IMG/VR virus record: IMGVR_UViG_3300024331_000007
Span: 128,001 to 192,000 of that record
DNA: 64,000 nucleotides
From: a virus
Taxonomy: Duplodnaviria; Caudoviricetes
Direction: 5' to 3' (one strand)
How positions within the stretch are numbered: position 1 is the stretch's first letter; every line of letters starts with the position of its first letter. Both the position numbers and the translations under genes were made by a program. Positions 813 to 59,393 of this stretch are shown here, piece after piece. The notes beneath the pieces were generated by a model. That model saw nothing but the letters and a program-made list of their open reading frames with translations, searched no databases and had not been told where the DNA came from.

Positions 813-1156
813 ATAGTTACTCGGACTCCTGTGTGGCGTCGTATGTATCCGCCATAACCATCATCTGAAGATGACGAAGAATCATCCTCTAACATTTTGA
901 GCATGAGTAATTGATCTTGTTCTTTCTGAGATAATGGTCGCCACGCAAAATGTTTGCCGCGATGGGCCACAATGGTTACGATCAGACCGTTTACACCAGC
1001 AATCAAAGAAGCAAGTATCGTCCAGACCTCACCTTTTTCATGCTCCAACGTAGTTCTGAAATGATGATTGTATTCTCCCATCAGAAAAAACCAATTGATA
1101 AAGGAACACATAAACCATACATATAAAAATTGCTGTTGAGTGATATGAATATGCAT
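809..1156 (-). CDS. small two-TM membrane protein (paralog array member)
   Basis: Two hydrophobic segments, then GKHFAWRP...QLLMLKMLE; similar to the next ORFs. Confidence 0.7.
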   Translation of the reverse strand: MHIHITQQQFLYVWFMCSFINWFFLMGEYNHHFRTTLEHEKGEVWTILASLIAGVNGLIVTIVAHRGKHFAWRPLSQKEQDQLLMLKMLEDDSSSSSDDGYGGYIRRHTGVRVTI

Positions 1157-1434
1157 TATTCTTCCAACTTTCGCAGCATTAATCGCTGCTCAATTTCGCT
1201 GTGTGTTTCTGGTCGCCACGCCCAATGTTTGAAACATCCTGTCAATAGTAAAGGTAGTGTGGCAGCGGGTCCAAAAATAACACATAAGACAACCAAAACT
1301 CTATCTCGAAAAAATGGTTCGTTGTCAGTGGTGTAGCTCCTGAGGAATCCGCTGACCATCCCCCAATTAAGAGTATCACATATTATCCACATAACCAAAA
1401 ATAAAATAACGGAGTGATGCATTGAACCTCTCAA
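1156..1434 (-). CDS. small two-TM membrane protein (paralog array member)
   Basis: Two hydrophobic segments, VIFGP, FKHWAWRP...QRLMLRKLEE. Confidence 0.7.
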   Translation of the reverse strand: MRGSMHHSVILFLVMWIICDTLNWGMVSGFLRSYTTDNEPFFRDRVLVVLCVIFGPAATLPLLLTGCFKHWAWRPETHSEIEQRLMLRKLEE

Positions 1435-1709
1435 TCTGCGTAGTACTCAAGAGTTTCAAGCATATCCCACCCGTCTTTCTTACTTTTGCCCCAGAATCGT
1501 CGGGTCCAATGCTTAAAACCAAACTGTTGAAATGTTGCAATGAATGCCGCAGGGCCAAGAACCAAATCAAACAGGATGAATAAAATATCTGTTTTGAGTT
1601 TTCGTGAACGCGGATGCTTCCATGTCATATAACCATCTTGAAAACCCCATGCGGCAAAACCAAACGCCAACCAACATGATGCCAGTATGTAATAAACAAT
1701 GTGTGTCAT
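1431..1709 (-). CDS. small two-TM membrane protein (paralog array member)
   Basis: Hydrophobic N-terminus, LVLGP, GFKHW. Confidence 0.7.
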   Translation of the reverse strand: MTHIVYYILASCWLAFGFAAWGFQDGYMTWKHPRSRKLKTDILFILFDLVLGPAAFIATFQQFGFKHWTRRFWGKSKKDGWDMLETLEYYAD

Positions 1710-2008
1710 GATTCCAACTTGTCTAAGAACCTACGTCCTTTTGAATTGTATTTCCAAAAACCAAATTTGGATTTTATACCGTGTTTATGATCCTCTATCA
1801 TTATTTCCAAAACAACCCACCATGACAATAGTCCACATATAATCATAAGGCCGAGAGCGTCTTTGTCTGGACCATCCAGAGTCAATAGATTTTTCGGCTC
1901 TCCGTCCCATAATGAAAACCAACAAAATAGCCACGCACTAAAACCAAACATCAGCCAAATTAGCCCAAAGCCAATGAAAAGTGAAATACAATAGAGTACC
2001 TCTCGCAT
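1706..2008 (-). CDS. small two-TM membrane protein (paralog array member)
   Basis: Start trimmed to MREVLY; ends SKGRRFLDKLES. Confidence 0.7.
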   Translation of the reverse strand: MREVLYCISLFIGFGLIWLMFGFSAWLFCWFSLWDGEPKNLLTLDGPDKDALGLMIICGLLSWWVVLEIMIEDHKHGIKSKFGFWKYNSKGRRFLDKLES

Positions 2009-2268
2009 CATGACTCCAGTTTTTCTAGGAATCTTTGCCCTTTTGATTTGTGTTTGTTTTTCCAGTTCGGCAATAACATATTGCCCTCTTTCAGCATCAT
2101 CGATGTTGTTACCAACCCACAAACTATACACGCAAGGGAACAACACCAAAGCTCGCGTTCTATTTTACCATTTTCGAAATAGGAGGTAAACAACAGCAGA
2201 ATATATGTAATAAGACCACACGTAAACCAACATACGAGGAATGCCAAAACAATCTGAGCAAATGTCAT
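2008..2268 (-). CDS. small two-TM membrane protein (paralog array member)
   Basis: Ends SKGQRFLEKLES, nearly identical to the neighbour's tail. Confidence 0.7.
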   Translation of the reverse strand: MTFAQIVLAFLVCWFTCGLITYILLLFTSYFENGKIERELWCCSLACIVCGLVTTSMMLKEGNMLLPNWKNKHKSKGQRFLEKLES

Positions 2269-2519
2269 AATTCAAACTTTCTGAGAACGTGCTCGTTTTT
2301 GCTTTGATACATTGTTCGATCTGCAATAAATCGGAATAGACCAATGATCAATAGCAATGGACCCACTACAAATATTTGAGGAATGAATCGAGAAATGTTC
2401 ACCCAAACAACTTTCATATTCACGCCGGGATTTTTTAATCTCTGCATCAGGACGCCGAGAAGGATCGCTGCAAATCCAGAACCAACCCACCAGAATAAAA
2501 ACCATGCACCTGTTTTCAT
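2265..2519 (-). CDS. small two-TM membrane protein (paralog array member)
   Basis: WWVGSGF...FVVGPLLL; ends HVLRKFEL. Confidence 0.65.
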   Translation of the reverse strand: MKTGAWFLFWWVGSGFAAILLGVLMQRLKNPGVNMKVVWVNISRFIPQIFVVGPLLLIIGLFRFIADRTMYQSKNEHVLRKFEL

Positions 2520-2539
2520 GATTCCAACTTTCTCACAAA

Positions 2540-3928
2540 TTACCCTTTCGCTATAGACCCCAACAATGACTTCAACAAGTCTTTCTTATTCTCTGTCGTT
2601 CCTCCGATTGACACTGTATCTGAGGACGATGCTTCTTTTTTGTTTCGAATCTTTGCCAGCATATTGCTTCCAGTCATTGTTGCCTCATCAACTGGTGCCT
2701 GTGTTGAATTTGTTATTCGAAGAGAATTTACATCGAAGTCCAAATCAACTTTGCTTCCAACCCCGCTACTGTTACGAGTCTTCATAAATTGCAATTGAAT
2801 TGCGCCACGTTCCTTCATACTGCGGCTAGTGAAAATTCCAAACACATTATCAGCAGTGAACAGTTTTGAAATACCACCAGCAATTGATCCTGATGAAAAC
2901 TCCAACTCGTCAAAACCACTGCGATTCAATTGGGATGCTGTAGCCAGTAGTGCTCTTTGTTCGATTGCAAAATTTCTCAACTCTTCACAAACCAGCTTGT
3001 CCTTTGTGAATACGTCAGCAACATCAATTTTTGCCCCACTTGGCATAATCAAATCCAAGTAATCAAGGCAAACAAAGTCTGCTTTGAAATCTTCCTGAAT
3101 CGCCAGTTCTTTAATGTACGCCTTGATCTGATTTACTGTACTCTGTGACGGCAGATACTTAATTTTTAGTCGGCCATACTTCTTTTCAGCCATCTTAATC
3201 CTGAGTTCAACATCGTCAATATTCTTGTAAATATCCTTGCTGCAAACACCTGTTACCATGCTGTCCAATCGCATTGCAACAAGGTCTTGACTCAATTCGA
3301 ATGTGATGTAAATTCCATTGAGTCCTGACTCGATCCAATTCAGAGCCAGATTTTGCAGGAACAAACTCTTTCCAGTTCCAGACGCTCCAACAAAAATATT
3401 CAGTTCGCCGCGATTTGATCCACCGTACAACTTCTCGTCAATGTCTTTCCAACCAGTGCTAATCTGACCATTGCTGTTTTTTAAACGCATCAAACGACCT
3501 CGCGGATCACTGAAATATTCAATACCTAAATCTCGCGTAAGGCTTACTTGAACTGCGTCTTTAATTAGCTTTTCAACTGTGTCAAATTCGCCCTTCACTA
3601 ACAGATCGGCGCTTTCTACAATTGCTCTTTCCAATTCTTCGCGCTTAGTAAATTGCTCAAAGTTATCCAGAAACCATTCTTCATGCCCTTCTCGAATATC
3701 GCTAATCAATTCAAGATTCGTATTCGCAACAGCATTCACTTGTTGAACAGTTGGAATAGTGTTGTGAGTCTGAACATGTTCCTGAATAAATTTTGCTGCT
3801 TTGTATAGGCTTCTATCGAAATTCTGCGGATTGTAGATGTTCTGAATGCGTGTGTATAGATTTCCGCTACTGAGTAAAAAATTAAGAAAGACTTCTTGTA
3901 CTTCTGGTCTTGTTTTTTCTGATGACAT
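2540..3928 (-). CDS. dnaB: replicative DNA helicase, T4 gp41/DnaB-like
   Basis: Walker A GASGTGKS, Walker B LDYLDLI, TASQLNR, MKTRNS; 462 aa; adjacent to primase. Confidence 0.93.
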   Translation of the reverse strand: MSSEKTRPEVQEVFLNFLLSSGNLYTRIQNIYNPQNFDRSLYKAAKFIQEHVQTHNTIPTVQQVNAVANTNLELISDIREGHEEWFLDNFEQFTKREELERAIVESADLLVKGEFDTVEKLIKDAVQVSLTRDLGIEYFSDPRGRLMRLKNSNGQISTGWKDIDEKLYGGSNRGELNIFVGASGTGKSLFLQNLALNWIESGLNGIYITFELSQDLVAMRLDSMVTGVCSKDIYKNIDDVELRIKMAEKKYGRLKIKYLPSQSTVNQIKAYIKELAIQEDFKADFVCLDYLDLIMPSGAKIDVADVFTKDKLVCEELRNFAIEQRALLATASQLNRSGFDELEFSSGSIAGGISKLFTADNVFGIFTSRSMKERGAIQLQFMKTRNSSGVGSKVDLDFDVNSLRITNSTQAPVDEATMTGSNMLAKIRNKKEASSSDTVSIGGTTENKKDLLKSLLGSIAKG

Positions 3929-4256
3929 GTATTACTGCCGCCTTGAGTATAATGTAAAGGTACTCTTTTATATAGTCCTTTCAAGTATACTTCTACGCAG
4001 TGTAAACAGTCAATGATTACTTCGCGGGTTTCTTTCCTAGCTTGTATGATGCAAACAATTTCTTTCTTCGGTTCTCTTGCCAAACACGATAAAAAGATCG
4101 CAGCAACAAGATCAAACTACAAATTCCGACTGCTAGGGAAGTGAATTGAAAAATTTGGTACAAGGTAATATGCATAGTGTTCACCATGATAGCAAAAATT
4201 CAACAGAAGTGCAACCAAAATTTATCTTGATTGCTTTGAAGCCTTTAGTCGCTGCA

Positions 4257-4988
4257 TCAATAATTTCTGTTTGGTCTTAAACAGCACGGTATTGTTTTCA
4301 TTCCTTTATTCCACGGAACCCTTCCACGCATTTTATTTTTAGTTTCTTCGGAATGGCGTTTTCCAAGATGAGAATTGGACATCTTTTTCTTTGATTCTTT
4401 GGATGCTTTGTTACCTAAATTATTTTGACTACCTATCAACGAAGAAGAGATTTTCTTTTTAGTTTCGACGGAAACTAAATGACCAGTTAGAGTGTTTCTA
4501 ATTTTCTGTTTGGTTGTATTTGACGGTGGTGTTCGTAGCAAAGTGGCTGTTCTAATTTTATTTTTAGTCGCTACTGCTTTGTCTTTTCCATATATTTCTT
4601 CATAGGAACGTCCCTTGTTCCTGCCACACTGGACGGCTGACATTTTCTTTTTAGTTTCTTCAGAATGAAACTTATTTTTGAATTTTGCTTTACCAAACCG
4701 ATGACTTTTATTGAGTAGCAAAGGATTGCACCAAGATTCAAAAATTTTGAACTGTTCAAAATTGTATGCATCATCTCCGGTATTAAACTCAGCCAATATT
4801 ATCCAATCATATTCATCAAAGTTGTTGCGAACAATATTACACGATGTTCGATACATTGGAAGATCAATGTCAGACGGCACATTTAGTTTTACATTCTTTT
4901 CTCTATAACCGATGTAAAATTGTTTTGTAATTTTGTGGATACACAGATATACATATGGACGAACTTGCGATGATTTATAAATATTCAT
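4257..4988 (-). CDS. free-standing GIY-YIG homing endonuclease with NUMOD3 repeats
   Basis: YVY...FYIGYR motif; repeated HSEETKKKMS-type NUMOD3 units; RVPWNKG. Confidence 0.85.
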   Translation of the reverse strand: MNIYKSSQVRPYVYLCIHKITKQFYIGYREKNVKLNVPSDIDLPMYRTSCNIVRNNFDEYDWIILAEFNTGDDAYNFEQFKIFESWCNPLLLNKSHRFGKAKFKNKFHSEETKKKMSAVQCGRNKGRSYEEIYGKDKAVATKNKIRTATLLRTPPSNTTKQKIRNTLTGHLVSVETKKKISSSLIGSQNNLGNKASKESKKKMSNSHLGKRHSEETKNKMRGRVPWNKGMKTIPCCLRPNRNY

Positions 4989-5053
4989 GCTGTTGCTCCA
5001 ATAAGCGATAGGGTAGTTGGGGAGGCCAATCCCGCGAACTACATCTATTTATA
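4989..5053 (-). ncRNA. late promoter plus conserved structured leader of GIY-YIG gene (copy 1)
   Basis: TATAAATA-G-AT-GTAGTT-CGC-GGGA/TCCC-C-AACTAC-CCTATCG-(GCT...GGAGC)-AACAGC-ATG; same architecture at 17432, 49882, 53622. Confidence 0.8.
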
Positions 5054-6070
5054 AGGGTTCCTAAATTGTTGCTGTACCCTTATCAGAGCCGCGTTATCGG
5101 TTGCATTTTTTAGCAAATGAGTAACACAAAATAACGAACCATATTTTACATATGCCGCATTTATGTCTTTGACATCCCATTGTGGTATACTCACACTCCA
5201 CCCATTATCAATAGCGGTATCAATTACACTATTATTTCGTATCACTTTTCCATTTTTATCTATTTTGGGTTTATTTAGCCCAGCCTTGTCAAGATCGGGA
5301 ACAACAATGATTTTCTTTTGAAGATCGCAAATCATTTCCGTTTGCTCGTCGCTAATTTCGTTGTGCATGACGGATAAACATTTCACACTTAGCGCATCCA
5401 GTAATCCTTCAGTGACAAATACCCATTCATGCTCTGGTTGAACATATTCCATACCAAACACAAATTCACAGGTCTTTCTCATGATATATCGCATCCTCTC
5501 GGCTGGATTGATCGAGCGAGCAGAATAGCCGATGATTGTATCGTGAAGAATGAATGGCAGAATTACGCGGGAACGATATACAAGATCAGGAGAAACAAGA
5601 AATGGAAAATCGGCGGGTGTAAAACCGCGAGTCTTCAAAAAGTTAACATGTGCTGGATACTTTGAAATATCATTTTCCAACAGCGTGCAATCTTTGGGCA
5701 TTTCAATTGCTTTAATGTCACGGCGTACAATTGCCCTCGGTTCAAACCCAGCTTCTTTTGCTGCGCGTAGACTTTCCAACTTGAGTTGACTAATCGTACT
5801 TTCGTCTACATTTAACCATTTAAGAAGATTGATAAACTTTGGATACAGTGGCTTGCCCGGTGTATATGAAGCTGTAGCGCCACAATTAAAACAATGAAAA
5901 CTACATGATCCTGCTGCGTTATCGAATTTCATTCCGCCACGCCCGCGTTTGTCTGGACTTTGACCGCGATGTTCACAGCACGGAGCATTACGAGACAGCC
6001 AGCCGCTTGGAGAGGTTTTAACTCTGCCGCGATGCCAATAATCGTATGCTGTTTGGGCGATAATGTTCAT
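5045..6070 (-). CDS. dnaG: DNA primase, T4 gp61/DnaG-like
   Basis: N-terminal Zn finger (CCEH...HCFNCG), TOPRIM VTEGLLDALS and PDLDKAG; start trimmed to MNIIAQ. Confidence 0.9.
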   Translation of the reverse strand: MNIIAQTAYDYWHRGRVKTSPSGWLSRNAPCCEHRGQSPDKRGRGGMKFDNAAGSCSFHCFNCGATASYTPGKPLYPKFINLLKWLNVDESTISQLKLESLRAAKEAGFEPRAIVRRDIKAIEMPKDCTLLENDISKYPAHVNFLKTRGFTPADFPFLVSPDLVYRSRVILPFILHDTIIGYSARSINPAERMRYIMRKTCEFVFGMEYVQPEHEWVFVTEGLLDALSVKCLSVMHNEISDEQTEMICDLQKKIIVVPDLDKAGLNKPKIDKNGKVIRNNSVIDTAIDNGWSVSIPQWDVKDINAAYVKYGSLFCVTHLLKNATDNAALIRVQQQFRNPYK

Positions 6071-6145
6071 TCTTGTGAGTATAGCACAAAAAACAGGTCG
6101 CGTCCACAACGAACAGCGACCCACCCAAACTGAAAAAGTCAATTA

Positions 6146-6979
6146 CTAAATACGGATGTTGCCCCCGCTAATGTAAGTCGCGACATTGGATGGGCTTAGG
6201 TTTCCAGAACGAGAAGGATCAATGGAATCCAGAACGAAACGAATTTGGGCAAAGCTGCCCGAAACAGATTGAAACACCAAACCAGCGGCATTTGCATAAA
6301 AAGTTGACGATACATTCGCCCAATCGGTGGGCAATGGAATTGAAACCATTGTTCCCTGAGCGACGATGTTTCCAGTATAGAGAACCAAATTTGCGCAAAG
6401 AGTTGCCAGAGTGCTGTTCATTGGTCTGTTTGTTAGATCGATTGGATTGCTAGTAACGCCCACATCAACAACATCCAAAAATGTTACTGGTGTTGGATCG
6501 GGATATGCAAGAACTGGACCTTTTGCCAGCGTTGTTGTTAAACGAGAACCAAAGTTGTCATTGATGTAAATTGGATAAATGTTAAGATTTGCGTCAGTTC
6601 CAGTCAGCGCAATTTCATACATACCAAAATCCAACGGTGCTAGTTCGCTGGGCGTAAACACGATTTCAACTACTCCATTCGTCGAGTCAATAGATGTGGC
6701 GTTTGCAGTAATCAGTTCATTCTGGGTGTTTGGCTCGAACAAGCCGCACTGAATTGCAACATTACTGTTGGCAAGATTGATGCGCTTCTGGTCTGAATTT
6801 AGACACTGAATCTTGATCGGATTGTTGACACCTGAATAGAGAACTAGCGGAGTACTATACACGGTTCGGACCTCATTATAGCCTACGACTCCAATACCAC
6901 TTGTTGCATCGGAGATGCCGACAATGTAGGCTAATATCTTGGTTTGACGGCCTTCAAAATAGGCTTTTACGGTCTGCAT
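6146..6979 (-). CDS. late, probably virion-associated beta-rich protein
   Basis: 277 aa, beta-strand-like composition, GCTAAATA late-promoter-like site directly upstream. Confidence 0.55.
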   Translation of the reverse strand: MQTVKAYFEGRQTKILAYIVGISDATSGIGVVGYNEVRTVYSTPLVLYSGVNNPIKIQCLNSDQKRINLANSNVAIQCGLFEPNTQNELITANATSIDSTNGVVEIVFTPSELAPLDFGMYEIALTGTDANLNIYPIYINDNFGSRLTTTLAKGPVLAYPDPTPVTFLDVVDVGVTSNPIDLTNRPMNSTLATLCANLVLYTGNIVAQGTMVSIPLPTDWANVSSTFYANAAGLVFQSVSGSFAQIRFVLDSIDPSRSGNLSPSNVATYISGGNIRI

Positions 6980-6984
6980 ACCTA

Positions 6985-7003
6985 TATTTAGCTTTTATAA
7001 ATA
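6985..7003. promoter_or_regulatory. back-to-back T4-type late promoters
   Basis: GCTAAATA on minus (6985-6992) and TATAAATA on plus (6996-7003) between divergent genes. Confidence 0.7.
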
Positions 7004-7036
7004 CTTTCGGCAATCAAAACATTCTAAAGGGAAAAC

Positions 7037-7417
7037 ATGACAAGCAAGCTCTATCAAACACTTTCGGAAAAATTTCCATTCATTTCAGTCATACTTTACG
7101 GGGATTCTCAGGACGAGTATGTTGGTATCATCCAAAACGCGGACAATATCATTACCAGCATCTACGATTTCGGTCTTTTGAAGTCCGACGAAGAAAAACA
7201 CCTGTTCCTCGAATTGGGCGAAAAATGGTACTACGAGTCCAATCGTCAATTGCCCATCAACATCTATTTGAAGGATGAATGGCAGTCTTTTGACAAGGTT
7301 TTCAAGACTTTTATCACAAAGGAACTTCAAGTAATTCACGGACCATCCACAAGCCTATCGGCGCTCTCTCAGAAGAAAAAACGCCGGTCGATTATGGTTG
7401 TGAAGAAGTTGAGCTAA
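7037..7417 (+). CDS. conserved phage hypothetical protein (late)
   Basis: 126 aa plus-strand ORF behind TATAAATA, with GGGAAA RBS-like site. Confidence 0.75.
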   Translation: MTSKLYQTLSEKFPFISVILYGDSQDEYVGIIQNADNIITSIYDFGLLKSDEEKHLFLELGEKWYYESNRQLPINIYLKDEWQSFDKVFKTFITKELQVIHGPSTSLSALSQKKKRRSIMVVKKLS

Positions 7418-8991
7418 TTTTCGTACATTGACGAGCTACGAGTTTCATGTCGAGTTTTTCGGCCTAGATGATTGTTTTTTTGAATGTAAACCAACTTGTT
7501 CAGAAGATCGGGATGCGTTCTCATCAAAATTTTCTTCTGTTTTCGCAATCTGGAATCCATTCTCAGAGGCTTATCATATGCAAACTGCCACGTTGAAAAA
7601 TTCCTGATTGGATAGTAACCATCATCCACAATTGTACCAACGAAGTTCATCTTTTCAGAAAATTTCTTGTTCGGTTGAGAAAGGCGGATAATATTCATTG
7701 TCTCAATCGCCTGATTAAATGCCGGGGCTTCGTTTTGTAAAATGTTTCTTGTGAATCGATGCTTGTCATTATGTGCTGATCCGCTAACCACATTGGTTCG
7801 CTCGGCCATCTTTTCCATTTTGTTTAGATTCGTTTTGTTTGCTGGAAGGATGACAACAGAATACGAATCAACTCGTTCATTATTTTTACCAGTTCTCGCG
7901 CTAAGCTGTCTGTTATACTGTTCGGCTGTTATTCTTCCAGCAGCCAATTCAAATACTTCAGGCAAAGCGTATACTTTTACGAAATGTCCCCTTTTATCAT
8001 AGTGGGCCACGCGCAGAAATGCCTGAGCCATGCTATTGTAGCACGAAGTTTCTGAACGATAATCATGCCAAAAATAAAGCAGGTTGTGAAACCCAACCTC
8101 AGTTGAACGACTACATGTTCTATCAATTACAAGCAACGTCAATACGCCAACCTTTGCATCTGGCGCGTCATCTTCCCACTCGTATGCTGTGGTTTTGTCG
8201 ATAAATTTGCATCGTATTCCAAGATTGTGTAATTCTTGAATCACAGCATGGTTGTTTTTGAGTTTAATACGATCTTGACTTCCGCCAATGTCTCGTAGAA
8301 CTGAAATAATTTTTCCAGTTTTCTTTCCGTTTCGAACCCAATCTTTGCAAATGTCAAGACCATGCGGAGTTAATCCATCATTGTCATAAAACTGTTCAGG
8401 CGCAGTTACAAGTTTTTTGTCTAGGAACCATTCTGCTCCGCGATATGATGATGGCGGTAAGAATGGTCGAGGAGCGGGGAAATTTTTGGAGAACTCTCTA
8501 CAATAAATTAGTTCTTCATTTGTGGCTGAATAATATCTGAATCGAACCAATTCGCCTAGTTTTTCTGTCTTCCGATAAAATGTTCCCAGACATTGTTTCT
8601 TGGCAGTTCCGTAATCGCTTTCGTCAATATGCACGTAGCAAAGAATGCCAGATGAAACTTTAGCCTTAATTTTTGCAACCTGAATCGAAATTTTGTCCAT
8701 CGAAGACACGATCAATGGTGTGATTCCATAGCTTTCCATTTCTTCAATTTGCTTCTTAGTATCTTTGCGCTGGAGAGCAGTTACATAAAAATGATGACAT
8801 TTGGCAAAATTTCTAGGTCTTGCCTTCGTAAACAACGATGCAATTTCAACCATGATTCTTTTGCCCGATTTGACTGGAGCTAGGATAGCCTCGTGTCTAT
8901 TGGCCGTCGCTATATATTTTGTCGTGTGGTCGTACAATTCAAAACGATTTGTTTTAAAATACAAAAGATCATGAAGATTTTGAGAACTCAT
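7414..8991 (-). CDS. divergent SF2 helicase-like ATPase
   Basis: APVKSGK (Walker A-like), HIDESD (DExD-like), YSAT (motif III), QAFLRVAHYD (motif VI-like). Confidence 0.55.
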   Translation of the reverse strand: MSSQNLHDLLYFKTNRFELYDHTTKYIATANRHEAILAPVKSGKRIMVEIASLFTKARPRNFAKCHHFYVTALQRKDTKKQIEEMESYGITPLIVSSMDKISIQVAKIKAKVSSGILCYVHIDESDYGTAKKQCLGTFYRKTEKLGELVRFRYYSATNEELIYCREFSKNFPAPRPFLPPSSYRGAEWFLDKKLVTAPEQFYDNDGLTPHGLDICKDWVRNGKKTGKIISVLRDIGGSQDRIKLKNNHAVIQELHNLGIRCKFIDKTTAYEWEDDAPDAKVGVLTLLVIDRTCSRSTEVGFHNLLYFWHDYRSETSCYNSMAQAFLRVAHYDKRGHFVKVYALPEVFELAAGRITAEQYNRQLSARTGKNNERVDSYSVVILPANKTNLNKMEKMAERTNVVSGSAHNDKHRFTRNILQNEAPAFNQAIETMNIIRLSQPNKKFSEKMNFVGTIVDDGYYPIRNFSTWQFAYDKPLRMDSRLRKQKKILMRTHPDLLNKLVYIQKNNHLGRKTRHETRSSSMYEN

Positions 8992-10079: not shown

Positions 10080-10527
10080 TCCATTAAAAATAAAACATAT
10101 GCTGCTTTACTTTTAAACTTGATAAACGTGTATCCCTCGCCGATAACGTCAGATCGAATCAGAGTTGCATTATATCTGTCTTTGTATCTCTGATTAATCT
10201 CTTTCCAAGACAATCTCGCCGAATCCCCGTTGACAACAGCTACCCATGCTTTAGTATGAGCGGCATATATGTCTTCGATTTTAACAGTTACACTCACAAC
10301 CACTCCAACAGAAAAAGCATGTATTCCGATTCTGATTTGAAAACAACCTCTCGGTATCCACTTTTATCAGCTATCAATGTTACGTTGTATCTCTGATTAA
10401 AAAAATTTTCAATGCCTTCGCTGATAATATCTGGACATGATGTTTGAAAATCTAAAACGGCAACATCCCATGCTTTGCCTAATGGCTTGTGTACTCCCCA
10501 ATCTGCTTTTACCGTGTAACTCATCAT
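10070..10527 (-). other. two tandem paralogous small ORFs (10070-10303, 10294-10527)
   Basis: Both 77 aa, share KAW...F..RYN.TLI...FKS...Y.LFL.EW. Confidence 0.65.
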
Positions 10528-10534: not shown

Positions 10535-10816
10535 CTATTCCGCTAGCTTAGCTAGCATTGCAATTTCGTCAGTTGGATTCTTGATATAGTGAATGGCTTT
10601 TCCATCTTGATTCACCGCTGAAGATTGTGCCTCTGGAGATGGAGTCTCAATGTATTGAATATAGAGAGGGTGTCCATCCAATGCCGCCAACTCTTCATCG
10701 ACTGACGGGCGTTTAATGTATCGAATTGTTGATGGTTCTTCGGCAATCGCAGCAAGGCGGCTTCGCTTTGTCATGCACATCAACGTCAAACGAATTACAT
10801 TCGGCATTATTTCCAT
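10535..10816 (-). CDS. helical repeat protein, paralog of 9576-10079
   Basis: RLAAIAEEPSTIRYIKRPS, ELAALDGHPLYIQYIETPS repeats; ends AMLAKLAE. Confidence 0.6.
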   Translation of the reverse strand: MEIMPNVIRLTLMCMTKRSRLAAIAEEPSTIRYIKRPSVDEELAALDGHPLYIQYIETPSPEAQSSAVNQDGKAIHYIKNPTDEIAMLAKLAE

Positions 10817-19644: not shown

Positions 19645-21591
19645 TTACATTTCCAGAGAAAGTAACACAGCCCTTTCTTTTGAAAGCTTTACAATCTGTG
19701 CAGAATTTTTTGAGATTGATTTGGATCGTTTTCCAGTTGAAAGACTCACTGATTTTTCGTTGATTTTAGTGATTCGCCCAACTTGAAGATTGGTGTAGTT
19801 AAAAGTTGCGTATGCAACCCAATCTCCAATAGTCAACTCTTCGCCAAGAAAATCTTTATATTTGGTTGGCAACACTGGTTTCGGTGGAGCAATAGTTTTT
19901 CTCGCTCTTTTGTCTGCTTTGTTTGCCTCAATAACTTTGGCGATGATTTCATCTTTTTCAGGAGATAGAATGATTACATTCTGCGTTTTTCTCCCCTCTT
20001 CAATAACGAAAATTACTTTGTTTCCAGCAGGATGGGCGTAAATCACTGTGCTGTCATTTGAATCTGGAGAGACTACATAATTGTTTGCCACTAGAAGTTT
20101 ACGAATCGAATCTTCTTTGAAGGAAAGCAAATTAGCAAGACGAGAGTAACGAACATCTCCAAATGTCCCTGAAACTAGATTTGTAACGGTAAACGTCGGA
20201 TCATAATTTGTGATGAGGTATAACTTTGTTGTCTTACATTTTGGACATGTGTACCTAGTAGTTTCAAGTTGATTCCACGAACCCCGCATAACATATGCAG
20301 TATATTCAGATGAAAATGTATGTCTGTATGGGCAACGCAATAATCCAAAAGCCATATGTTTATCCTTGTATGAACATTTGCAACATTGCTTGTTCATCTG
20401 TGAGTCGTATGATTTGTGTTGGCATCTTTTTAATAACGGTTTTCCTAGTTCTAACTCTTATGTGAACGCTTGTTCTGGTCAATTTTTCAACTTTGCCTAA
20501 AATAATTTTTCCATTATATGTGCCGCCATAACCTCTTATGTATCCTGTGCTATATGTTGTGGCAACCCAATCTGAAGGTTTTAGTTCGTTTCCGATGGCG
20601 TCTTTAACGACAACCTTTTTACCTTCTACCAATTCTGTCGGAACTTTGAAAACTTGTGCTGAGGTTTTTGTAATTGTTCGGCTTTTTCCATTGGGTAAAA
20701 CCACAACGCTATTTGTGTTAAAATCAACAACCTTTCCAAAAATAGATTTTCCCGTTGCTGTCTTATAAAAAGCAACCCAATCGTTGATCTGTATTTCCGA
20801 TCCAACACAATCTGTCATCATTGCTCCAATGCCATGAGCAAAGATTGCTCTGGCGTAAGTAAAAATATTTGTTCGGAAGTTTTGTACGGCAATACAATCT
20901 TTCCCTTTTGAATTTTCGCACCGATGAGCATTTGATCATCAGTATGCCACGAATTTTCTTTGAATTTCTCAATTGCCGTCACACGGCCAAACGACAAACT
21001 TTTAGTTCCCCACGCACAAACCCAGCATCCAACTGTTACATCATTTCCTCTTGCATCTTTCATTGAAGCAATCTTTGGCTTGGGTTTCGGTGCTGGTTCT
21101 GCCGCCTTGGCTGCTTTATCCACCTTCGCACATTCAATCAGTTTCGGGAATAATAGATCATCGGAGCAATGCAAGCCAATATACATTTCCGTTGTTTTGC
21201 GCTTCCGTGAGAACTTGAAAAGTACATATTCTTTCAGTTCGTTTTCCAAAATGATTTCAGTTTGTCCTGTTTTAGTTGGCGCGAATCCGTTTGCCTCCAA
21301 TGTATCCAGCAAAGAATCCTTTTTATAATTGCCATACGTGGATGAACCATAATTGTAGAACAATTCCTTAGCAAAGGTAACAACAATCATTTTTTTGAAT
21401 GTCAAGGCAGGATGAACATAATTAGCCAAAACTTTCGCATGTATGTTTGCGCAGTTTGGACATTTGGCAGTGAAACTATCTTTCGATGAAATCCAAAGAT
21501 GTTTGCAACCATATGTACATTCGTAGAGACTATGAATCTCTTTCTTCGTATTTGAATTTTGAAATGGAGTTCGAACTAGAATCGCTGGCAT
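19645..21591 (-). other. three tandem paralogous ORFs with D..G..(I/L)..GDWV SH3-like modules (19645-20397, 20360-20821, 20818-21591)
   Basis: KDFLGEELTIGDWVA, DCVGSEIQINDWVA, DAIGNELKPSDWVA, DARGNDVTVGCWVC; each ends in a short E..(A/L)(M/V/L)L helix. Confidence 0.7.
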
Positions 21592-28890: not shown

Positions 28891-30141
28891 CTACGATTTA
28901 GTCTTTTTGGCAACCGATTTTTTCTCAAATATTTCGATTTTTGGTATTTCCTTTTTATCTACACAGTTGCCGTGAAAAGTAACTTTGGCCACTCTTCGCT
29001 TTTGGTACTCTGGAATAATGTATAAATGTGGTAACATGATGGCGTCACAAATAGATCGAAGACCTCGAACTCCAGTTTTTTCAGTTTTTGCTTGATGTGC
29101 AACTCTTTCCAAAAAGTCGTTGGTAAATTCCAAATCTATCCCATCCACGTTAAAGTAGAATTTGTATTCAGCTAGAATGTTGTTCTTTGCATTAGTAAGA
29201 ACTTCCAAGAGTTCAACTTCAGTTAGCTCTTTTGTGTGGGTTTTCATTGGAAATCTCCCCACAAATTCTGGAATCATACCAAACTCTACGAAATCTTCAG
29301 TGACATATTCGGCATCAAGATTTTGGGTAGCTGCAACTGCGGCATCTCCGAAGCCAAGTCCCTTCTTTTTCTTTAATCGAGTAGTCACAATGTCCGTCAT
29401 TCCGATGAACGCACCACCACAAATGAATAACATATTCGAAGTATTAACTTCCACTACCTTTGGCGCTCTTTTTGAGTCTGGATTTAACGTAACTGGTATG
29501 ACCGTTCCTTCAACCATCTTCAATAATGCAGACTGGATGCCTGATACTTTAGCTTCCGATGCAGTGGCGCGATTCTTCGTAGTGATCTTGTCAATTTCAT
29601 CTATGAACACAATACCATTTTCGGCTGCATTGATGTCACCATTAGCTTCCATTAGCAAGCGTGTGATGATAGTATCAACATTTTGACCAATATATCCAGC
29701 TTCAGTAAGAGTTGTGGCATCTACAGCTATGAAAGGAACATCCAGAAACTTTGCAACGGTACTCACCAGCAGGCTTTTTCCACTTCCACTCGGCCCGGTA
29801 ATCATTAAGTTACTCTTATTCAGATCACTTCCTTCGTGTTCGTAGAGCATCCTCTTATAATGATTTACCACGCTGACGCAAATAGCCATTTTTGCCGTCT
29901 CTTGGCCGATCACAAACTGGTCCATGAACTCTCTAATCTTTATACTATTGAGTTGTTCAACCAATTGCTTCTTTTCTGCCACTTGCGAAGGAACAATCTC
30001 AGACGCAGGGGTGCTCTTGAGCAGGCCGTTGAACAGGATTATGCATTTGTCGCATATCGAGTAGTCACCGCTTACGACCATCTTGAGGCTCTCACCTCTA
30101 CTTTTTTTGCAGAAAGTACATTTGATGGGATTTTTAGTCAT
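28891..30141 (-). CDS. clpX: ATP-dependent Clp protease ATP-binding subunit ClpX
   Basis: C4 Zn domain, VIGQETAK, GPSGSGKS, DATTLTEAGYIG, FIDEIDK, LGF loop, GMIPEFVGR, TGVRGLRS. Confidence 0.93.
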   Translation of the reverse strand: MTKNPIKCTFCKKSRGESLKMVVSGDYSICDKCIILFNGLLKSTPASEIVPSQVAEKKQLVEQLNSIKIREFMDQFVIGQETAKMAICVSVVNHYKRMLYEHEGSDLNKSNLMITGPSGSGKSLLVSTVAKFLDVPFIAVDATTLTEAGYIGQNVDTIITRLLMEANGDINAAENGIVFIDEIDKITTKNRATASEAKVSGIQSALLKMVEGTVIPVTLNPDSKRAPKVVEVNTSNMLFICGGAFIGMTDIVTTRLKKKKGLGFGDAAVAATQNLDAEYVTEDFVEFGMIPEFVGRFPMKTHTKELTEVELLEVLTNAKNNILAEYKFYFNVDGIDLEFTNDFLERVAHQAKTEKTGVRGLRSICDAIMLPHLYIIPEYQKRRVAKVTFHGNCVDKKEIPKIEIFEKKSVAKKTKS

Positions 30142-42794: not shown

Positions 42795-43816
42795 TTTGTA
42801 CCTCTTTCTGTATTATTTACTGCTCCAACTTCCGAATCATTTGTTGCTCAATTGACTGCCATGCGGCATTCCATGCACGAAGTTTCGACTTTTGCCAGCC
42901 ACTGAGGAATCTCCATGACTCAAGTCCAATTATCTCAAAATAGGTTGTTTTGAATACCTTGTTTGGGTCCACATCATTTTCTGGTGAAAAATATCCAATG
43001 ATAAACTTCGCTGTCGCAGCCCATTCCGATGAATATGAATTTGTATTAGAGTCCAAATCCTCAGCAACTAATGCATTTGGATAAATGGCCCGTACTTTGT
43101 CCTTCGATGTTTGTCTTTTCATTTCTCAAACTTTTGAAGCATTATTTGCTGAATCATAACCCATGTGCTTATCCAAGCTTCGTCAATCGTTTCGGACCAT
43201 CGTCCTTTTAATCTGAAATGTGAATTTACCCTCTGATAATCACCTGTAATCATCAGCAATTCTTCCGATGTAATGAGAGTCGGCTCTCCGACTCCGTACA
43301 ACTTCAGTGCATGAACATGATTAGTATACTTGTGAGTATCCTTGAATACGATTGCGTTTGGAAATATCCCTCTTACCTTTGAAATGACATCCTGAATCTC
43401 AGTAGAAACCGATGGCATTGGCTCGTACTTCCACTCTTTAAACGTAGGTCCGACAAACCAATCGTTCGAGTCATCCAATCCCATGTGTTTTCCTTTACTT
43501 GTTGAATTTCCAAATTTCATTTAACTGCCGTTGGGCAATCGAATAGTTTCTAAACTTTTTCTCATGGGTTTTTAGCTGATCTTGTATTCTTTTTAAGCGA
43601 GGTAAAATATCTTTGTGAAATGATTCTATGACCGCTGATTGCCCATTTTTGTTTACATAACTAGTGTAAACCAAATTTTGAAAAGAGTCAAGAGAAAAAT
43701 AAAATTCGGTCAATTCTCTGTCAAGCTCAATCATTTCAACAACTAACGATGGCAATCTCGATGCCCACGATAGCTCTTGCGCAGCAAGCATCGCATCAAA
43801 AATTAGATATTTGGCT

Positions 43817-51985: not shown

Positions 51986-52549
51986 TTAATAAAATTCCAC
52001 CACTTGATCGGCAAGTCCGTACTTTACGGCTTCCTTTGCCGTCAACCAAACATCTTGCGGTGGAAGCAAATACTTTTTTATCTGTGGTTCTGTTAGACCT
52101 GTGCAAAGTTTGATATGAGTCATTACGCGCTGCGTTGCATTATTGAACTCAGTAACCTTGGCCATCAGTTCATGTTCTTTACCGTGCGATCCCCACGAAA
52201 ACTGGTGTGACAGAATCGCAGTGTTTCTTGTGATGAACCGCTTTCCCTTAGTTCCAGCGATGAACGCGAACAATCCAGCACTGCTAATTTGTCCCAATCC
52301 ATATGTACAGATCGGAACGCGGCTTCCTTTCATAGTATCAATTAATGCGAAACAGCTTGGCATTTCTCCACCCGCTGAATTGAAAATCATCTTCATCATT
52401 TTCGGCGGTGTGTCCATAAGATTGCGTTGAAGGATAAACGTTATCGCCTCGCCAGTTGAGCTAGGGTCAAAATCCTTGTTGAAAAGAAAATAGTGGTGAT
52501 CTTCTAATGTTGGGATGTTTGGAACTTTAACATCTTCTTGTAGGCCCAA
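51986..52549 (-). CDS. clpP: ClpP-family protease subunit
   Basis: FNSAGG, GQISSAG (catalytic Ser), SHQ (His), D.WLTAKEAVKYGLADQV. Confidence 0.85.
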   Translation of the reverse strand: MGLQEDVKVPNIPTLEDHHYFLFNKDFDPSSTGEAITFILQRNLMDTPPKMMKMIFNSAGGEMPSCFALIDTMKGSRVPICTYGLGQISSAGLFAFIAGTKGKRFITRNTAILSHQFSWGSHGKEHELMAKVTEFNNATQRVMTHIKLCTGLTEPQIKKYLLPPQDVWLTAKEAVKYGLADQVVEFY

Positions 52550-54421: not shown

Positions 54422-54885
54422 TAAAGATTTAGGTGGCCCAGAGCCGAATCCAATTTTTCTTTTGTAACTGGCCCCACGGCTGTTATTGTATGTACTCGAT
54501 CTTTCGTTCCATAAAATTGCTCATTTGTGTCATGAAACTCACCATAAACAATGTTTGTGTCATCAGAAATCAAATCTTGAATTTCATTGGAAACCTTCCG
54601 AAGTTCTTTTGAGTTGCGAACAGCAAGAACAATCGCCGTCATTTCACGATATTCAACATTTGAATTTGCAAACATTCGTTCAGTAAATCGTCCTATATGA
54701 TAACCTTGCGCTATCAGCCTTCCGTGAACCATCGGAAAAGACTCAACAGTATCTTCAAATAATTCTGGATGATAGCAATCCTCTGGAATATTGAATTCTG
54801 TTGGCGGCTCAATACCCTTATGCAAAAGTTGTACAGTTTGTGGGACAATCACATAAATTCTCTCGTCAAGCATAAACCCTCTCAA
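54418..54885 (-). CDS. peptidyl-tRNA hydrolase type 2 (Pth2)-like protein
   Basis: RIYVIV, GRLIAQGYH, IVLAV.N..EL, HD, T.TAVGP....LD..LGHLNLY follow the Pth2 pattern. Confidence 0.6.
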   Translation of the reverse strand: MRGFMLDERIYVIVPQTVQLLHKGIEPPTEFNIPEDCYHPELFEDTVESFPMVHGRLIAQGYHIGRFTERMFANSNVEYREMTAIVLAVRNSKELRKVSNEIQDLISDDTNIVYGEFHDTNEQFYGTKDRVHTITAVGPVTKEKLDSALGHLNLY

Positions 54886-55929
54886 TTCTCAAGTCTGCAA
54901 AGCAGCATTTCTTCTTTTGACCCTGTAGTCAGTGTATAGGAAGGAACATACAACTTTTTGTTTACGCCTTGTATTTCAAATAATATCCTATCCGCATGAA
55001 TGACTACATTTTTAATGGTTACGACATATCTCTCTTTTGTGACATCGGCAATTCCATGAGGATAGTAAAATAGAGTTAGCCCAATCAAAAATGTATACAT
55101 TCAATTCTCCAAAGTTGCAAGCATCGCCTCTTCATTTGTGGCGTGTTCCAAATACCAACTCTTAACCCATTTCGTATCGCCGTCAAAGAACGTTATTTCA
55201 AAATCAGCGTCAGTTGGGCAGTCTTCGGTGATTTTTGCCATGTAACGTTTGGATGTATCGTCTCTATGATACCAAACATAGTCGCCAATTTCGAATCCCC
55301 ATCCATCCGACATTTAACTCTCCAGTTCCAACTTGTAAAGGAACAGTCTTTCCTGTGATGCATATTCCAATTGCCACGGCGGAACCCATCTCCATCTCTG
55401 TATCCCAAACACAATCTTGACTTCAGTTGGTTCAATCTCCACAATCTTTGCTGGTATAATTGTTGGCGGAATCGTTTTGGGATAGCCGCCTTCTCGAAAT
55501 TCGAACAGAACATCGTCTCCAACCTTTATCTCATGTCCATTTTTATCCAGCATAAATAGTCTCCGTGAACACTTCGTCAAAATTCGCGTTTGCGGTTGGA
55601 ATCGTTGCTTTGGGTGTTTTTGCTATCGCCGTTCATGTTTCTCAACTCGTCCCACGAAACGCATATTACAACCCGCCCAAATTTAAAGGTAACACTGCGT
55701 TTGTTTAACTTTCCAACTTGTACAGCATCAACTCACCTTTTGTCGGTGTCTGAATCTGGTCTGAATATACGGTCATGTAATCGGAACCTTCCCAACGAGG
55801 GTTTATCTGTACTGTGACCATGTTATAACTTATGTCTTTGTCCAGAACTTTCATCATGTGGCGAGAATCTGGTTTGAGTACAAAATACTCATCCAACGAA
55901 TATACCCAAACCAAATCTCCGTTTCTCAT
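54882..55929 (-). other. run of small SH3-like ORFs sharing the C-terminal ..L..LE(N/S) helix (54882-55100, 55101-55313, 55314-55580, 55705-55929)
   Basis: GD.V beta-barrel starts; tails MLLCRLEN, MLATLEN, LFLYKLELES, LMLYKLES. Confidence 0.7.
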
Positions 55930-56132: not shown

Positions 56133-56622
56133 ATCGTTTCCTCTTTCTTCCGATCAAAAGTCCCATACATGAAAACTAAAATTGCCAACAGGAGATAGTA
56201 GATGGCCGATTGTTTATCTCCAGCATCGAAAAAATGACCTGAATAGATAACCAAACCAGCACTGGAGATTTGAAATACAAATGCTAATGTTTCCAGAATT
56301 GCTTTTTTAAACATGATGCCTCATTTCTCAAAAGTTTTCAGAACATCGATTGAAGTCTTAGCCTTCGTTAAAAAGTCAGCTTTCTTTTCATCCGTTCCAG
56401 ACGCAAGAAATAACGCCAATTCCAACACTCGGATATATTTTGCGTTTGCGCTTATCTCTCGCTGAAAATATTCAGCCTGTCCTGCACTACTTGCGGCCCT
56501 TTCCTTGAAATGCTCTAGCTCTCGCATCACCTCATGAAGCTGACGCATTGCACGTTCATATTCTATGCGTACATCGTCTCTTCCGTAATAACCTCTATCC
56601 ATCCCGTCAAGTCCGATTGGCA

Positions 56623-57327
56623 TTAGTTCTCCAGCTTGGACACCATTGCATTACTTGTGTACATCTCAATGTTGTACTTGAAACGCCTCTTGGCGTCATA
56701 AATGTCCATTGCAATTTGAACGGCATTCCATGCCGCATCGATTGCATAATTCTCGTGACGATCCTGAGTCCAGCCGATAAACTCCGCAGGAAGGTCCATG
56801 TCGATATAGCGTCGTCTACCTGCCTTGTTCTCGTAAAGCCACTTTCTCAGTTTACGCGCATAAACATATCGCGTCAATCCGTCGCGATTGTACTCAGTCA
56901 ACAGAAAATCCATAATCGCGGTTGGCGAACCATTCATCTCTGGCGTGATTTCTTGCCACCGTCTATCATACTGCTTTGTTCTGACGGACGACACGCGGCT
57001 AAACTCACGCGAAAAATATGCCTTCTTTTTTCCTGCCTTGTATACAACTTTGGAAGCAAACTCAAGCATCGTATCTTCAGGTTCATGCGGCAACTTGTAT
57101 TTCAAGCAATCAATTAATTCGTCATTGCCCATCATTTCCTTTGCGAGAGAAACTAGATATTCTCCCACAAGATGCGTCGGCAAAGGTTGAGGATAAACCC
57201 ACGATCCATCAAGCCGCGCCGTCTGATAGAGGAAAAACGGAGCAATAGGACCGTTGTCATATTTCGTGCTGTCAAAAATGAATGTGTATTTCTCAGGATT
57301 GATCGTGGAACGAAAATTGTGAACCAT
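56623..57327 (-). CDS. hypothetical protein
   Basis: 234 aa ORF; ends MVSKLEN. Confidence 0.6.
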   Translation of the reverse strand: MVHNFRSTINPEKYTFIFDSTKYDNGPIAPFFLYQTARLDGSWVYPQPLPTHLVGEYLVSLAKEMMGNDELIDCLKYKLPHEPEDTMLEFASKVVYKAGKKKAYFSREFSRVSSVRTKQYDRRWQEITPEMNGSPTAIMDFLLTEYNRDGLTRYVYARKLRKWLYENKAGRRRYIDMDLPAEFIGWTQDRHENYAIDAAWNAVQIAMDIYDAKRRFKYNIEMYTSNAMVSKLEN

Positions 57328-57361
57328 TTTATCCCTTCTTTGGTCATTTCTGTTTATCTGT

Positions 57362-57369: not shown

Positions 57370-57400
57370 CCAATAAGCAATTTACTTCGGAGATAACGAA

Positions 57401-58370: not shown

Positions 58371-58399
58371 AGTATACCAAACATTGGGATTAAAGTCAA
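58371..58399 (-). promoter_or_regulatory. sigma70-type early promoter
   Basis: TTGACT-N17-TATACT. Confidence 0.75.
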
Positions 58400-58449
58400 G
58401 AACTTTAACCCCTTTGTTTAGTTATGGTTGAGAGCCGATTTCCACAGGA

Positions 58450-59055
58450 TTAGCCAATCATTGCCCTAATCAATTCGATTTGAGTCTCCAAAACGTGCCT
58501 AACGTTCTGATACGCGGCCTCTTGCTGAGGGAACAACTTACGAGCAGCCTTGAGCAATGGCAGGATAAACTCTTCAGTTTCAGCAATATATGACAACTGC
58601 TTTTCCTTGCCGAAAACGCCATGCATAGATTGGTGATTGTGCATTCTATCGATGCCCTTTGCCAAACTCGCAACGGGATCATTAACCATAGCAGCGTAAT
58701 ACTTGTCAAGCGGCTTTTTGACGCCAGAGACTTGATTGGTCATGAGTTCAACATGATTCGCATTGCGATCTCCAAACATTTCATTGATGACCGACATGCC
58801 AACATTACAATCTTCAACAACGTCATGGAGCCAAATGGTTATCATTGTTTCCTCGGGAAACATTGTTTGGTCCAAAATGGTACGCGCAAAATTTGCCTGA
58901 GAGACTTGATGCTGAAATTCTGGCGTGACCTTATCCTTGCGTAAACCAACATGCTTACTCTGAGCAAAATTCATTGCTCTGAGAGCAGTGTGATATCCAC
59001 GGCCAACTTGCCAATATCGAATAGCAATTCTCATCTTTTCAAAGTCTTGCTTCAT
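58450..59055 (-). CDS. HD-domain hydrolase, RelA/SpoT hydrolase (Mesh1)-like
   Basis: H.G.RKD..TP...H, LHDVVED, V..MT, K..DR.HN. Confidence 0.8.
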   Translation of the reverse strand: MKQDFEKMRIAIRYWQVGRGYHTALRAMNFAQSKHVGLRKDKVTPEFQHQVSQANFARTILDQTMFPEETMITIWLHDVVEDCNVGMSVINEMFGDRNANHVELMTNQVSGVKKPLDKYYAAMVNDPVASLAKGIDRMHNHQSMHGVFGKEKQLSYIAETEEFILPLLKAARKLFPQQEAAYQNVRHVLETQIELIRAMIG

Positions 59056-59077
59056 CGTAGTCTCCTAACCACATTAT

Positions 59078-59106
59078 AGTGTACCAAACTTTATCGATAA
59101 AGTCAA
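59078..59106 (-). promoter_or_regulatory. sigma70-type early promoter
   Basis: TTGACT-N17-TACACT. Confidence 0.65.
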
Positions 59107-59111
59107 GTATA

Positions 59112-59393
59112 TTATCTTTCAAGCATATGCAGCATAACGTAGTTTTTGTCAACCCACGTAACTTGTGATGGCATCTTGTAAACTGTTTTTACCTGTGTTT
59201 CTGCGCGTGTATAACCGTCTTTCCAAGCACGACACAATCCAATTTCATCATGCCGTTGGCGCAGTCGTCCATGACGCCTTACAGTTCCAGCATTGCGAAA
59301 CTCTACAACTTCAAATAGTTGAACATCGCCGCTCGCCCATACAGCAGTAACGTAATCACCAATTTCAATCGAGTGTCCAATTGCATCAATCAT
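59112..59393 (-). CDS. SH3-like small protein
   Basis: DAIGHSIEIGDYV; ends VMLHMLER. Confidence 0.6.
   Translation of the reverse strand: MIDAIGHSIEIGDYVTAVWASGDVQLFEVVEFRNAGTVRRHGRLRQRHDEIGLCRAWKDGYTRAETQVKTVYKMPSQVTWVDKNYVMLHMLER

Follow-up and report, generated by a model that had tools for sequence, protein, structure and literature searches.

Why do so many small proteins of one phage, built on several different folds, end in the same short helix? The question is raised by a 64,000-nucleotide stretch, here called the window, comprising bases 128001 to 192000 of the 359,890-bp virus record IMGVR_UViG_3300024331_000007. An original prediction, made from the window alone, listed proteins whose last residues follow a common M-L-x-K-L-E-like register (hereafter, the tail). 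All 15 C-terminal strings that it quoted are exact at minus-strand gene ends, and its near-terminal variants at 809 (QLLMLKMLED, 24 residues before the end) and 61551 are present. We conclude that the tail is a self-capped helix of about three turns that is conserved at the peptide level. The gene end is dual-coded, specifying both this helix and, where an ATG follows 5 nt on, the Shine-Dalgarno (SD) sequence of the next gene; where the spacing does not suit an SD, or no gene follows, the same peptide is encoded by ordinary codons. For the joint explanation that we favor, which combines a peptide-level tail helix, the dual-coded gene end, and a shared protein-protein contact, we put the probability at roughly one in two.

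Enrichment of the tail at gene ends

Genes were called with a home-made hexamer coding model and an iterated ribosome-binding-site (RBS) matrix, which yielded 586 genes. The positions of stops, and with them the tails, are independent of the choice of start. The phage has no relative in INPHARED, searched by DNA and by protein; its larger genes encode ribonucleotide reductase, a DnaB-like helicase, RNA ligase, NadA, and ClpX with a zinc finger.

The tail consensus is [ST]-x-[DE]-E-hydrophobic-[ML]-[LIV]-x-[KR]-[LF]-E, followed by 0 to 2 residues and the stop codon. At the exact C-terminus, the pattern [MLFVI][LIVM]xx[LF]Ex is found in 49 of the 586 genes, where 0.52 would be expected from its rate inside proteins (binomial p ∼2e-78). 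In 1,000 trials in which the last 15 residues of every protein were shuffled, such tails numbered 0.5 on average and never more than 4. An additional 43 genes carry the pattern 1 to 5 residues before the end, bringing to 92 the called genes with it no more than 5 residues from the stop, out of 135 matches in the whole proteome. Uncalled space holds 20 more open reading frames (ORFs) with the pattern, ∼15 of them convincing, including those at 1156, 2008, and 54882 of the window. The carriers thus total ∼105 of ∼600 genes, or about one in six, and 46 of the 49 with an exact-terminus tail are at most 140 residues long.

Profiled with no pattern imposed, the C-terminal 14 positions showed M/L at −8/−7, K at −4, L at −3, and E at −2, both in small genes that are coupled and in those that are not. 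The outcome that the original prediction had named as refuting it did not occur: the enrichment is limited neither to Leu-Glu nor to genes with a start 5 to 9 nt downstream. Counted as independent sequence clusters, with families A and B (described below) deliberately merged, those with the tail number 24, compared to 2.6 ± 1.4 (maximum, 7) in shuffles. The conserved Glu is followed by 0 to 15 residues, and the proteins end in S, N, Q, E, K, NA, NL, ES, and others. With four acidic residues and one basic, the consensus SDEEAMLWKLEN has a net charge of about −3, as read from the sequence. The late-promoter-like motif TAAATA is nearly absent upstream of gap-preceded tail genes (1/30 versus 44/235), suggesting that these are probably early or middle genes.

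Families and folds of the carriers

The carriers comprise four or more expanded, tandemly arrayed families (A to D), about ten singletons, and two 250-aa fusion proteins. Within one family, a shared tail is inherited by descent. The claim that the window holds “about 17 otherwise unrelated” carriers therefore has to be given up: they resolve into six paralogous proteins with two transmembrane (TM) spans, eight or nine members of family A (counting the C-terminal domains of the 250-aa proteins at 19645 and 20818), two of family B, one of family C, and three singletons. The accompanying claim, that the motif is nonrandom and sits on different architectures (membrane proteins, SH3-like barrels, and others), was borne out, with families A and B sharing the tail only.

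Family A has ∼35 to 45 genes, whose products start with MKDxxGxxLxxGDxV and end with [ST]xEEAML[WY]KLEN(x). Its AlphaFold2 (AF2) model, based on 141 relatives, consists of five strands and a helix at residues 60 to 69 (pLDDT, 83). Foldseek matched the model to Tudor, PWWP, and chromo-barrel folds (E ∼4e-4 for Tudor and PWWP), and a profile search of the PDB found the KOW domains of Spt5, L24, and NusG, covering the body only. The body has the five strands and the G-D/K turn after strand 1 that characterize a KOW/Tudor-like SH3 barrel. One family-A member matches KOW (PF00467) above the Pfam cutoff, the only such match when 10 + 10 + 10 carriers and relatives were searched against Pfam and PHROGs. 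The nearest named Atlas cluster is DUF7205 (PF23835), based on likeness of features and structure plus a “weak” precomputed match on one ortholog (P0006); the DUF7205 Pfam hidden Markov model (HMM) had no match in this genome, nor any above the cutoff in the scanned members and relatives. A two-copy complex prediction for family A scored 0.04 against a mark of 0.42, which is evidence neither way.

Family B has ∼45 to 70 genes, mostly at 245 to 268 kb of the genome, and its products start with MTxKExVxxxYPxA and end with AWxxAxxxIxxxMLxKLEx. The AF2 model (pLDDT, 92.9) has an alpha-beta-beta-beta-alpha order, assigned by DSSP as H3-10, E15-20, E26-34, E43-50, and H53-73, with the tail forming the last third of the 21-residue alpha-2. 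The body has the topology of a double-stranded RNA-binding domain (dsRBD), and the top Foldseek matches are mostly weak ones to dsRBDs (E, 0.01 to 0.1), as are the dsrm neighbors in the Atlas (TM score, 0.57 to 0.60). The Pfam dsrm profile (PF00035) does not match family B, which we therefore call dsRBD-like and not a dsRBD member. Neither the KOW nor the dsRBD profile includes the tail. Family C has four genes, with products ending FxSKxEYVLFMLEW[ST] and one external relative only. Family D consists of six consecutive membrane proteins (window, 809 to 2519) with two hydrophobic spans each.

The tail is the sole alignable segment between families. HMMs built without it recovered 33 A and 43 B members with zero cross matches, and hhalign of A against B gave a probability of 0.4% without tails. 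With tails included, 11 columns aligned, confined to the tail (“EAMLwkLENa”/“MLxKLE”; E, 4e-4). The genes of the two families are interspersed within the same arrays. A literature search on DUF7205 and on tandem small phage paralogs with a conserved C-terminus found nothing relevant.

Around the arrays, a 113-aa GIY-YIG-like ORF (...YIGITAKT...; genome, 66562 to 66903, plus strand) heads a family-A array at 66.9 to 70.5 kb. At 245 to 268 kb, many of the 140- to 570-nt “gaps” between family-B genes hold further tail-ending ORFs or fragments of 24 to 40 codons (e.g., genome 253029 to 253103 and 258048 to 278), and some may be decayed copies.

Codons and gene junctions

Genome-wide, 41% of Leu codons end in G and GAG makes up 25% of Glu codons. 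We grouped tails according to how far the Glu codon lies from the next start, and found NTGGAG in 23 of 27 tails at 5-nt spacing (LEx-TAATG or LExx-NNATGA) but in only 1 of 16 at 2-nt spacing (LEx with ATGA) and 5 of 31 with no coupled start (1 of 8 in the strictest uncoupled set). The gene at 1706..2008, for example, has its Glu codon 2 nt before the next start and reads TTGGAA, hence no SD. YTG-GAG codons are thus tuned only where the spacing lets GGAG work, whereas the peptide is found in all classes, making the RNA and peptide pressures separable. The RBS consensus of the genome is A-G-G-A-G/A, with GGAG beginning at −10 or −9, in line with the established best SD, AAGGAG. Because GGAG needs just a G-ending codon before it and AAGGAG would read Lys-Glu, the Leu and the upstream M-L-x-K register are peptide constraints. 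The overlap of stop and start (TAATG or NNATGA) determines the one or two residues that follow the Glu; LEN is followed by A, S, L, or V, since ATGA requires a codon ending in A.

These data bear directly on whether the motif is merely the amino acid reading of the next gene's RBS and stop/start overlap. Several features have this character: TGGAG is 5.6-fold enriched upstream of starts, most tails at 5-nt spacing have NTGGAG, and the last residue of LENx tails is set by the overlap. The arrangement also resembles translational coupling in trp and phage early operons, with GGAG in the last codons 5 nt before ATG and frame-fixing ATGA/TAATG overlaps. Unlike in classic coupling, the SD is carried here by one conserved peptide helix on ∼100 genes, which persists where coupling is impossible. 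The peptide is still present, with background codons, at 2-nt spacing and where no gene lies downstream, GGAG in frame does not demand Leu, the M-L-x-K stretch lies 9 to 21 nt upstream of the SD, and ortholog tails change synonymously while the peptide stays constant. As the sole explanation, a by-product of coupling is refuted by the spacing classes, the uncoupled tails, and the codon changes between orthologs, and we regard this reading as very improbable. The caveat in the original prediction, that Leu-Glu codons supply the GGAG of the next coupled gene, holds as it was worded, accounting for Leu-Glu codon choice where the spacing fits and not for the Leu or the M-L-x-K register.

The dual coding is unusually clean in that selection acts on one set of nine bases both as Lys-Leu-Glu and as the RBS of the next gene, and the 5-nt versus 2-nt spacing provides an internal control that separates the two pressures. 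The string ...MLxKLEN followed by TAATG or NNATGA could also serve as a simple marker for such mini-gene arrays in metagenomes.

Two further peculiarities of the junctions were observed. In the 2-nt class, an Arg before the Lys is encoded by AGG in 4 of 7 cases, compared to 7% of Arg codons genome-wide (e.g., genome 267267, 267995, 254410, and 265589), and AGG at that Arg creates a second SD-like GAGG or AGGA 9 to 11 nt ahead of the start. Family-B proteins at 245 to 268 kb mostly start with Met-Thr, because the ATGA overlap makes the second codon begin with A, so the N-terminus too is partly dictated by the gene junction.

Conservation in relatives

A 29-kb ENA contig (L006) is syntenic with the window at 54 to 64 kb. 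Three tail-bearing ortholog pairs have tail identities of 0.75 to 0.92 versus body identities of 0.21 to 0.38; the protein at 56321..56623, compared with its ortholog, shows 0.75 in the tail and 0.38 in the body. A fourth pair has 0.83 in the tail versus 0.78 in the body, and in a fifth the residues differ but still fit the pattern. No comparable contrast between end and body is seen in non-tail genes. In the tail NAMVSKLEN (56623..57327), 5 of 9 codons are silently changed relative to the ortholog, with the peptide unchanged. Based on these comparisons, the tail is under purifying selection between orthologs.

The family-A profile matches 333 clusters at 50% identity, and the tail is at the end in 135 of the 152 small proteins among the matches listed. 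Tail columns carry 2.3 to 4.2 bits of information versus 0.3 to 1.7 bits for most body columns, and the polar tail positions are conserved as strongly as the hydrophobic ones. The tail stops 1 to 2 residues short of the stop codon in 118 of 131 family-A sequences. A 9,136-bp contig (L009; OBLT010003902.1) has ∼29 back-to-back family-A genes at ∼1244 to 8131 on the minus strand, all with the tail and with the same overlap geometry, indicating that such arrays are not peculiar to this phage. A metagenome scan returned 47 loci, of which ∼7 are true family-A loci (L009, L010, L012, L015, L021, L024, and L029) and the rest are chance matches; an IMG/VR search with two back-translated tail patterns gave 0 matches. 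Among external family-B relatives, most end in MLxxLE or MMRKLLS; in one, alpha-2 is short and canonical and lacks the tail.

A proposed shared contact and its alternatives

The same helix on different folds, its place as the best-conserved segment of family A in hundreds of metagenomic relatives, and the signs of purifying selection together make a shared protein-protein contact the most likely explanation. Family D offers no soluble domain on which the tail could pack and the polar positions in family A are equally conserved, from which we infer a shared contact surface. The tail would dock on one common partner or drive co-assembly, while the variable domain in front would supply specificity; it may have spread between families via tandem duplication in coupled arrays and occasional 3′-end exchange. 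Taken by itself, the proposal of a common helix for docking or assembly is tentative, and we give it somewhat less than even odds. If the helix is a common docking element, a sixth of the phage's genes would belong to one interaction network, the hub could be fished with a 12-residue peptide, and ∼100 genes of unknown function would become one testable system.

Several observations weigh against this proposal. The analysis identified no partner. The family-B tail is modeled as a continuous part of alpha-2 at pLDDT >90, and a C-terminal helix after the barrel is normal in PWWP and chromo-barrel folds, which are relatives of the family-A fold, so a purely intramolecular role is conceivable for both. 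In two tandem-domain relatives, the internal copy keeps only a degenerate helix. Tail conservation in family A is partly a matter of ascertainment, the query profile being dominated by the tail. Across families A and B, the exact tail is retained in 33 of 40 coupled versus 20 of 36 uncoupled genes (p, 0.013), and uncoupled B members often end in KLAE or KLAS, suggesting that part of the Glu conservation is at the RNA level. In the 2-nt class, 7 of 16 tails have another SD-like 4-mer built from Arg(AGG)-Lys codons, so the basic positions may also bear some RNA constraint. The home-made gene set itself missed ∼15 tail carriers.

Much of this would fit a helix whose role is purely structural. Without any shared partner, each family would need an amphipathic helix at the C-terminus in order to fold or to be stable, and the likeness between families would stem from rules that apply to helices in general (Ser N-cap, acidic first turn, and Asn C-cap), the Leu-Glu/SD overlay, and occasional 3′-end exchange. 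The place of the B tail within alpha-2, the helix of PWWP and chromo-barrel proteins, the degenerate helix of internal copies, and the better retention of the exact tail in coupled genes all agree with such a helix, as does the interspersion of A and B genes in arrays. The same M-L-x-K-L-E register on four architectures and in 24 sequence clusters is harder to reconcile with it, as are family D, with no soluble domain for packing, and the polar positions of family A. Synonymous codons also vary freely among paralogs with no sign of recent gene conversion of the tails, which we therefore reject. A structural helix alone is a possible but rather unlikely account.

Known systems offer partial parallels to a docking tail. 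The T4 clamp-binding tails (gp43, gp33, and gp55) are likewise short C-terminal peptides on otherwise unrelated proteins, docking on one hub, but they differ in sequence and have far fewer carriers. The tail consensus does not have the T4-type form (xLDFLF or LFDMFDF), and we rejected the sliding clamp as an unlikely hub because the phage's DNA polymerase bears its own, different tail, NTFDDFFS. The poxvirus ankyrin/PRANC F-box-like proteins and the cellular F-box and SOCS-box families also combine many paralogs, a variable domain, and a constant C-terminal element; that element is a domain there and a ∼12-residue helix here, and the functional analogy is speculative. By this analogy, the ∼100 tail mini-proteins might form an adaptor library whose small binding domains, of several folds (KOW/Tudor-like, dsRBD-like, and membrane-anchored), would each bind a different host or phage target and whose helix would plug into one hub. 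The hub may be, e.g., the phage ClpXP or an RNA-processing machine, making the library a bacterial-virus counterpart of the F-box/PRANC families; we consider it doubtful. The folds of families A and B have their own likenesses, to KOW/Tudor-like barrels and the dsRBD, with the tail outside those profiles.

A C-terminal degron or tethering tail for the phage's ClpX and ClpP, giving ∼100 small early proteins a programmed lifetime or making them adaptors that hand over their bound targets, is improbable. The phage encodes ClpX with a zinc-finger N-domain and a ClpP-like protease, the shortage of TAAATA upstream is consistent with early proteins, and the tail shares its C-terminal position with the ClpX recognition tails (ssrA LAA-COOH, the MuA type, and the SspB XB tail) and loosely resembles the last of these (ALRVVK-COOH). 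Known ClpX C-degrons are recognized through their terminal residues and free carboxylate. Here, in contrast, the stop/start overlap sets the final residues, which are polar and vary from tail to tail, so a classical C-degron is unlikely; in relatives, the motif can be followed by up to 15 residues, the tail forms a capped helix instead of an unstructured end, and it has neither the nonpolar LAA nor the basic residues of ssrA- and MuA-like degrons at its extreme C-terminus. A packaging or localization signal, for capsid loading or membrane targeting, seems less credible still. Cargo-loading and encapsulation peptides are, like the tail, short, terminal, and found on unrelated domains, and those of encapsulins and microcompartments are amphipathic helices on unrelated enzymes. 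However, there is no shell or compartment candidate, ∼100 different cargoes are implausible for a capsid, and the tail genes look nonlate. Targeting helices are basic, unlike the tail with its net charge of about −3, and a MinD/FtsA-type membrane-targeting helix was rejected since the positive polar face is absent. The T4 prohead-protease site (L/I-x-E) was rejected as well, as the register does not fit, K falls at P3, and cleavage would take only 1 to 2 residues. Finally, the last 10 to 12 residues might act in the exit tunnel as a nascent-peptide element favoring reinitiation at the overlapping start. The position of the tail 1 to 2 residues before the stop in most family-A sequences and the ATGA or TAATG overlaps throughout the arrays suit this idea, but the tail is also present on genes with nothing downstream, is modeled as a folded helix of the mature protein, and, to our knowledge, is unlike known arrest peptides; we give the idea hardly any weight.

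Carriers and other genes in the window

The carriers in the window are listed in Table 1. The tails quoted in the original prediction are real, but its list omitted the genes starting at 1431, 10294, and 56321 and the degenerate one at 20360, and one entry, at 10535, is probably repeat-derived. The tail of the latter protein is probably its final NPxxE repeat unit, and the protein is a doubtful member. Three paralogs of the family-C gene at 10294..10527 lie just upstream of the window, at 125.6 to 126.4 kb of the genome.

Table 1. Tail carriers and other features, by position in the window unless marked as genome
Feature	Position	Strand	C-terminal end and remarks
Family D membrane protein	809..1156	−	QLLMLKMLED internal, then 24-residue Ser/Asp/Gly-rich extension
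Family D two-TM protein	1156..1434	−	KHWAWRP...QRLMLRKLEE; free ORF, missed by gene caller
Family D membrane protein	1431..1709	−	GWDMLETLEYYAD; not in original list
Family D two-TM protein	1706..2008	−	RRFLDKLES; ATGA overlap with next gene
Family D two-TM protein	2008..2268	−	GQRFLEKLES; CTGGAG 5 nt ahead of next ATG
Family D two-TM protein	2265..2519	−	EHVLRKFEL; TTTGAA, without GGAG
Family C member	10294..10527	−	FKSESEYMLFLLEWL; not in original list
Helical-repeat (NPxxE) protein	10535..10816	−	IAMLAKLAE, no Leu-Glu; doubtful member
250-aa protein, Cys-rich N-terminal part and C-terminal family-A barrel	19645..20397	−	RAVLLSLEM; CTGGAA, without coupled downstream start
Family A, degenerate tail	20360..20821	−	LTDEQAMLQMFIQG; not in original list
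257-aa paralog of 19645, C-terminal MKDxxGxxVxVGxWV barrel	20818..21591	−	QSLLMALEQ; TTGGAG 5 nt ahead of next ATG
ClpX with zinc-finger N-domain	28891..30141	−	
Family B (dsRBD-like)	42817..43122	−	AWNAAWQSIEQQMIRKLEQ
Family B-like	43119..43520	−	EAWISTWVMIQQIMLQKFEK; TTTGAG, 2-nt spacing
ClpP-like protease	51986..52549	−	PF00574, E 9.5e-29
72-aa protein	54882..55100	−	SKEEMLLCRLEN; probably degenerate family-A member
Family A	55101..55313	−	NEEAMLATLEN; five-strand barrel and helix 60-69 (modeled)
Family A	55314..55580	−	ERLFLYKLELES; tail kept in orthologs P0006, P0010, and P0011
Family A	55705..55929	−	KGELMLYKLES; no coupled start; L006 ortholog: tail kept, synonymous changes
100-aa all-helical singleton	56321..56623	−	SIDVLKTFEK; not in original list
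234-aa protein	56623..57327	−	SNAMVSKLEN; ortholog tail peptide identical
Family A	59112..59393	−	KNYVMLHMLER; uncoupled, CTTGAA
Family-A-like	61551..61880	−	Degenerate tail plus extension VVMLYKFSLSAKHES
Family-B DNA polymerase, 887 aa	genome 331879..334542, outside window	+	...KKANTFDDFFS

Helical repeats of ∼23 residues (NP[ST]xExxLxAV) make up two small proteins, the one at 10535 to 10816 of the window (minus strand) and another at 70510 to 70959 of the genome (plus strand). Both end mini-gene arrays and are overlap-coupled to the last array gene, and their final units mimic the tail (IAMLAKLAE and ALMLAKLIN, respectively).

The ClpX and ClpP-like genes both fall inside the window, ∼22 kb apart. 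The end of the DNA polymerase, NTFDDFFS, resembles a T4/RB69-type sliding-clamp-binding tail and would give this phage another C-terminal docking peptide, distinct from the tail described here. On the syntenic contig L006, the gene for the large subunit of ribonucleotide reductase (3064 to 6264, plus strand; window counterpart at 61968 to 63992, minus strand) contains an intein with a LAGLIDADG domain, according to precomputed Pfam matches.

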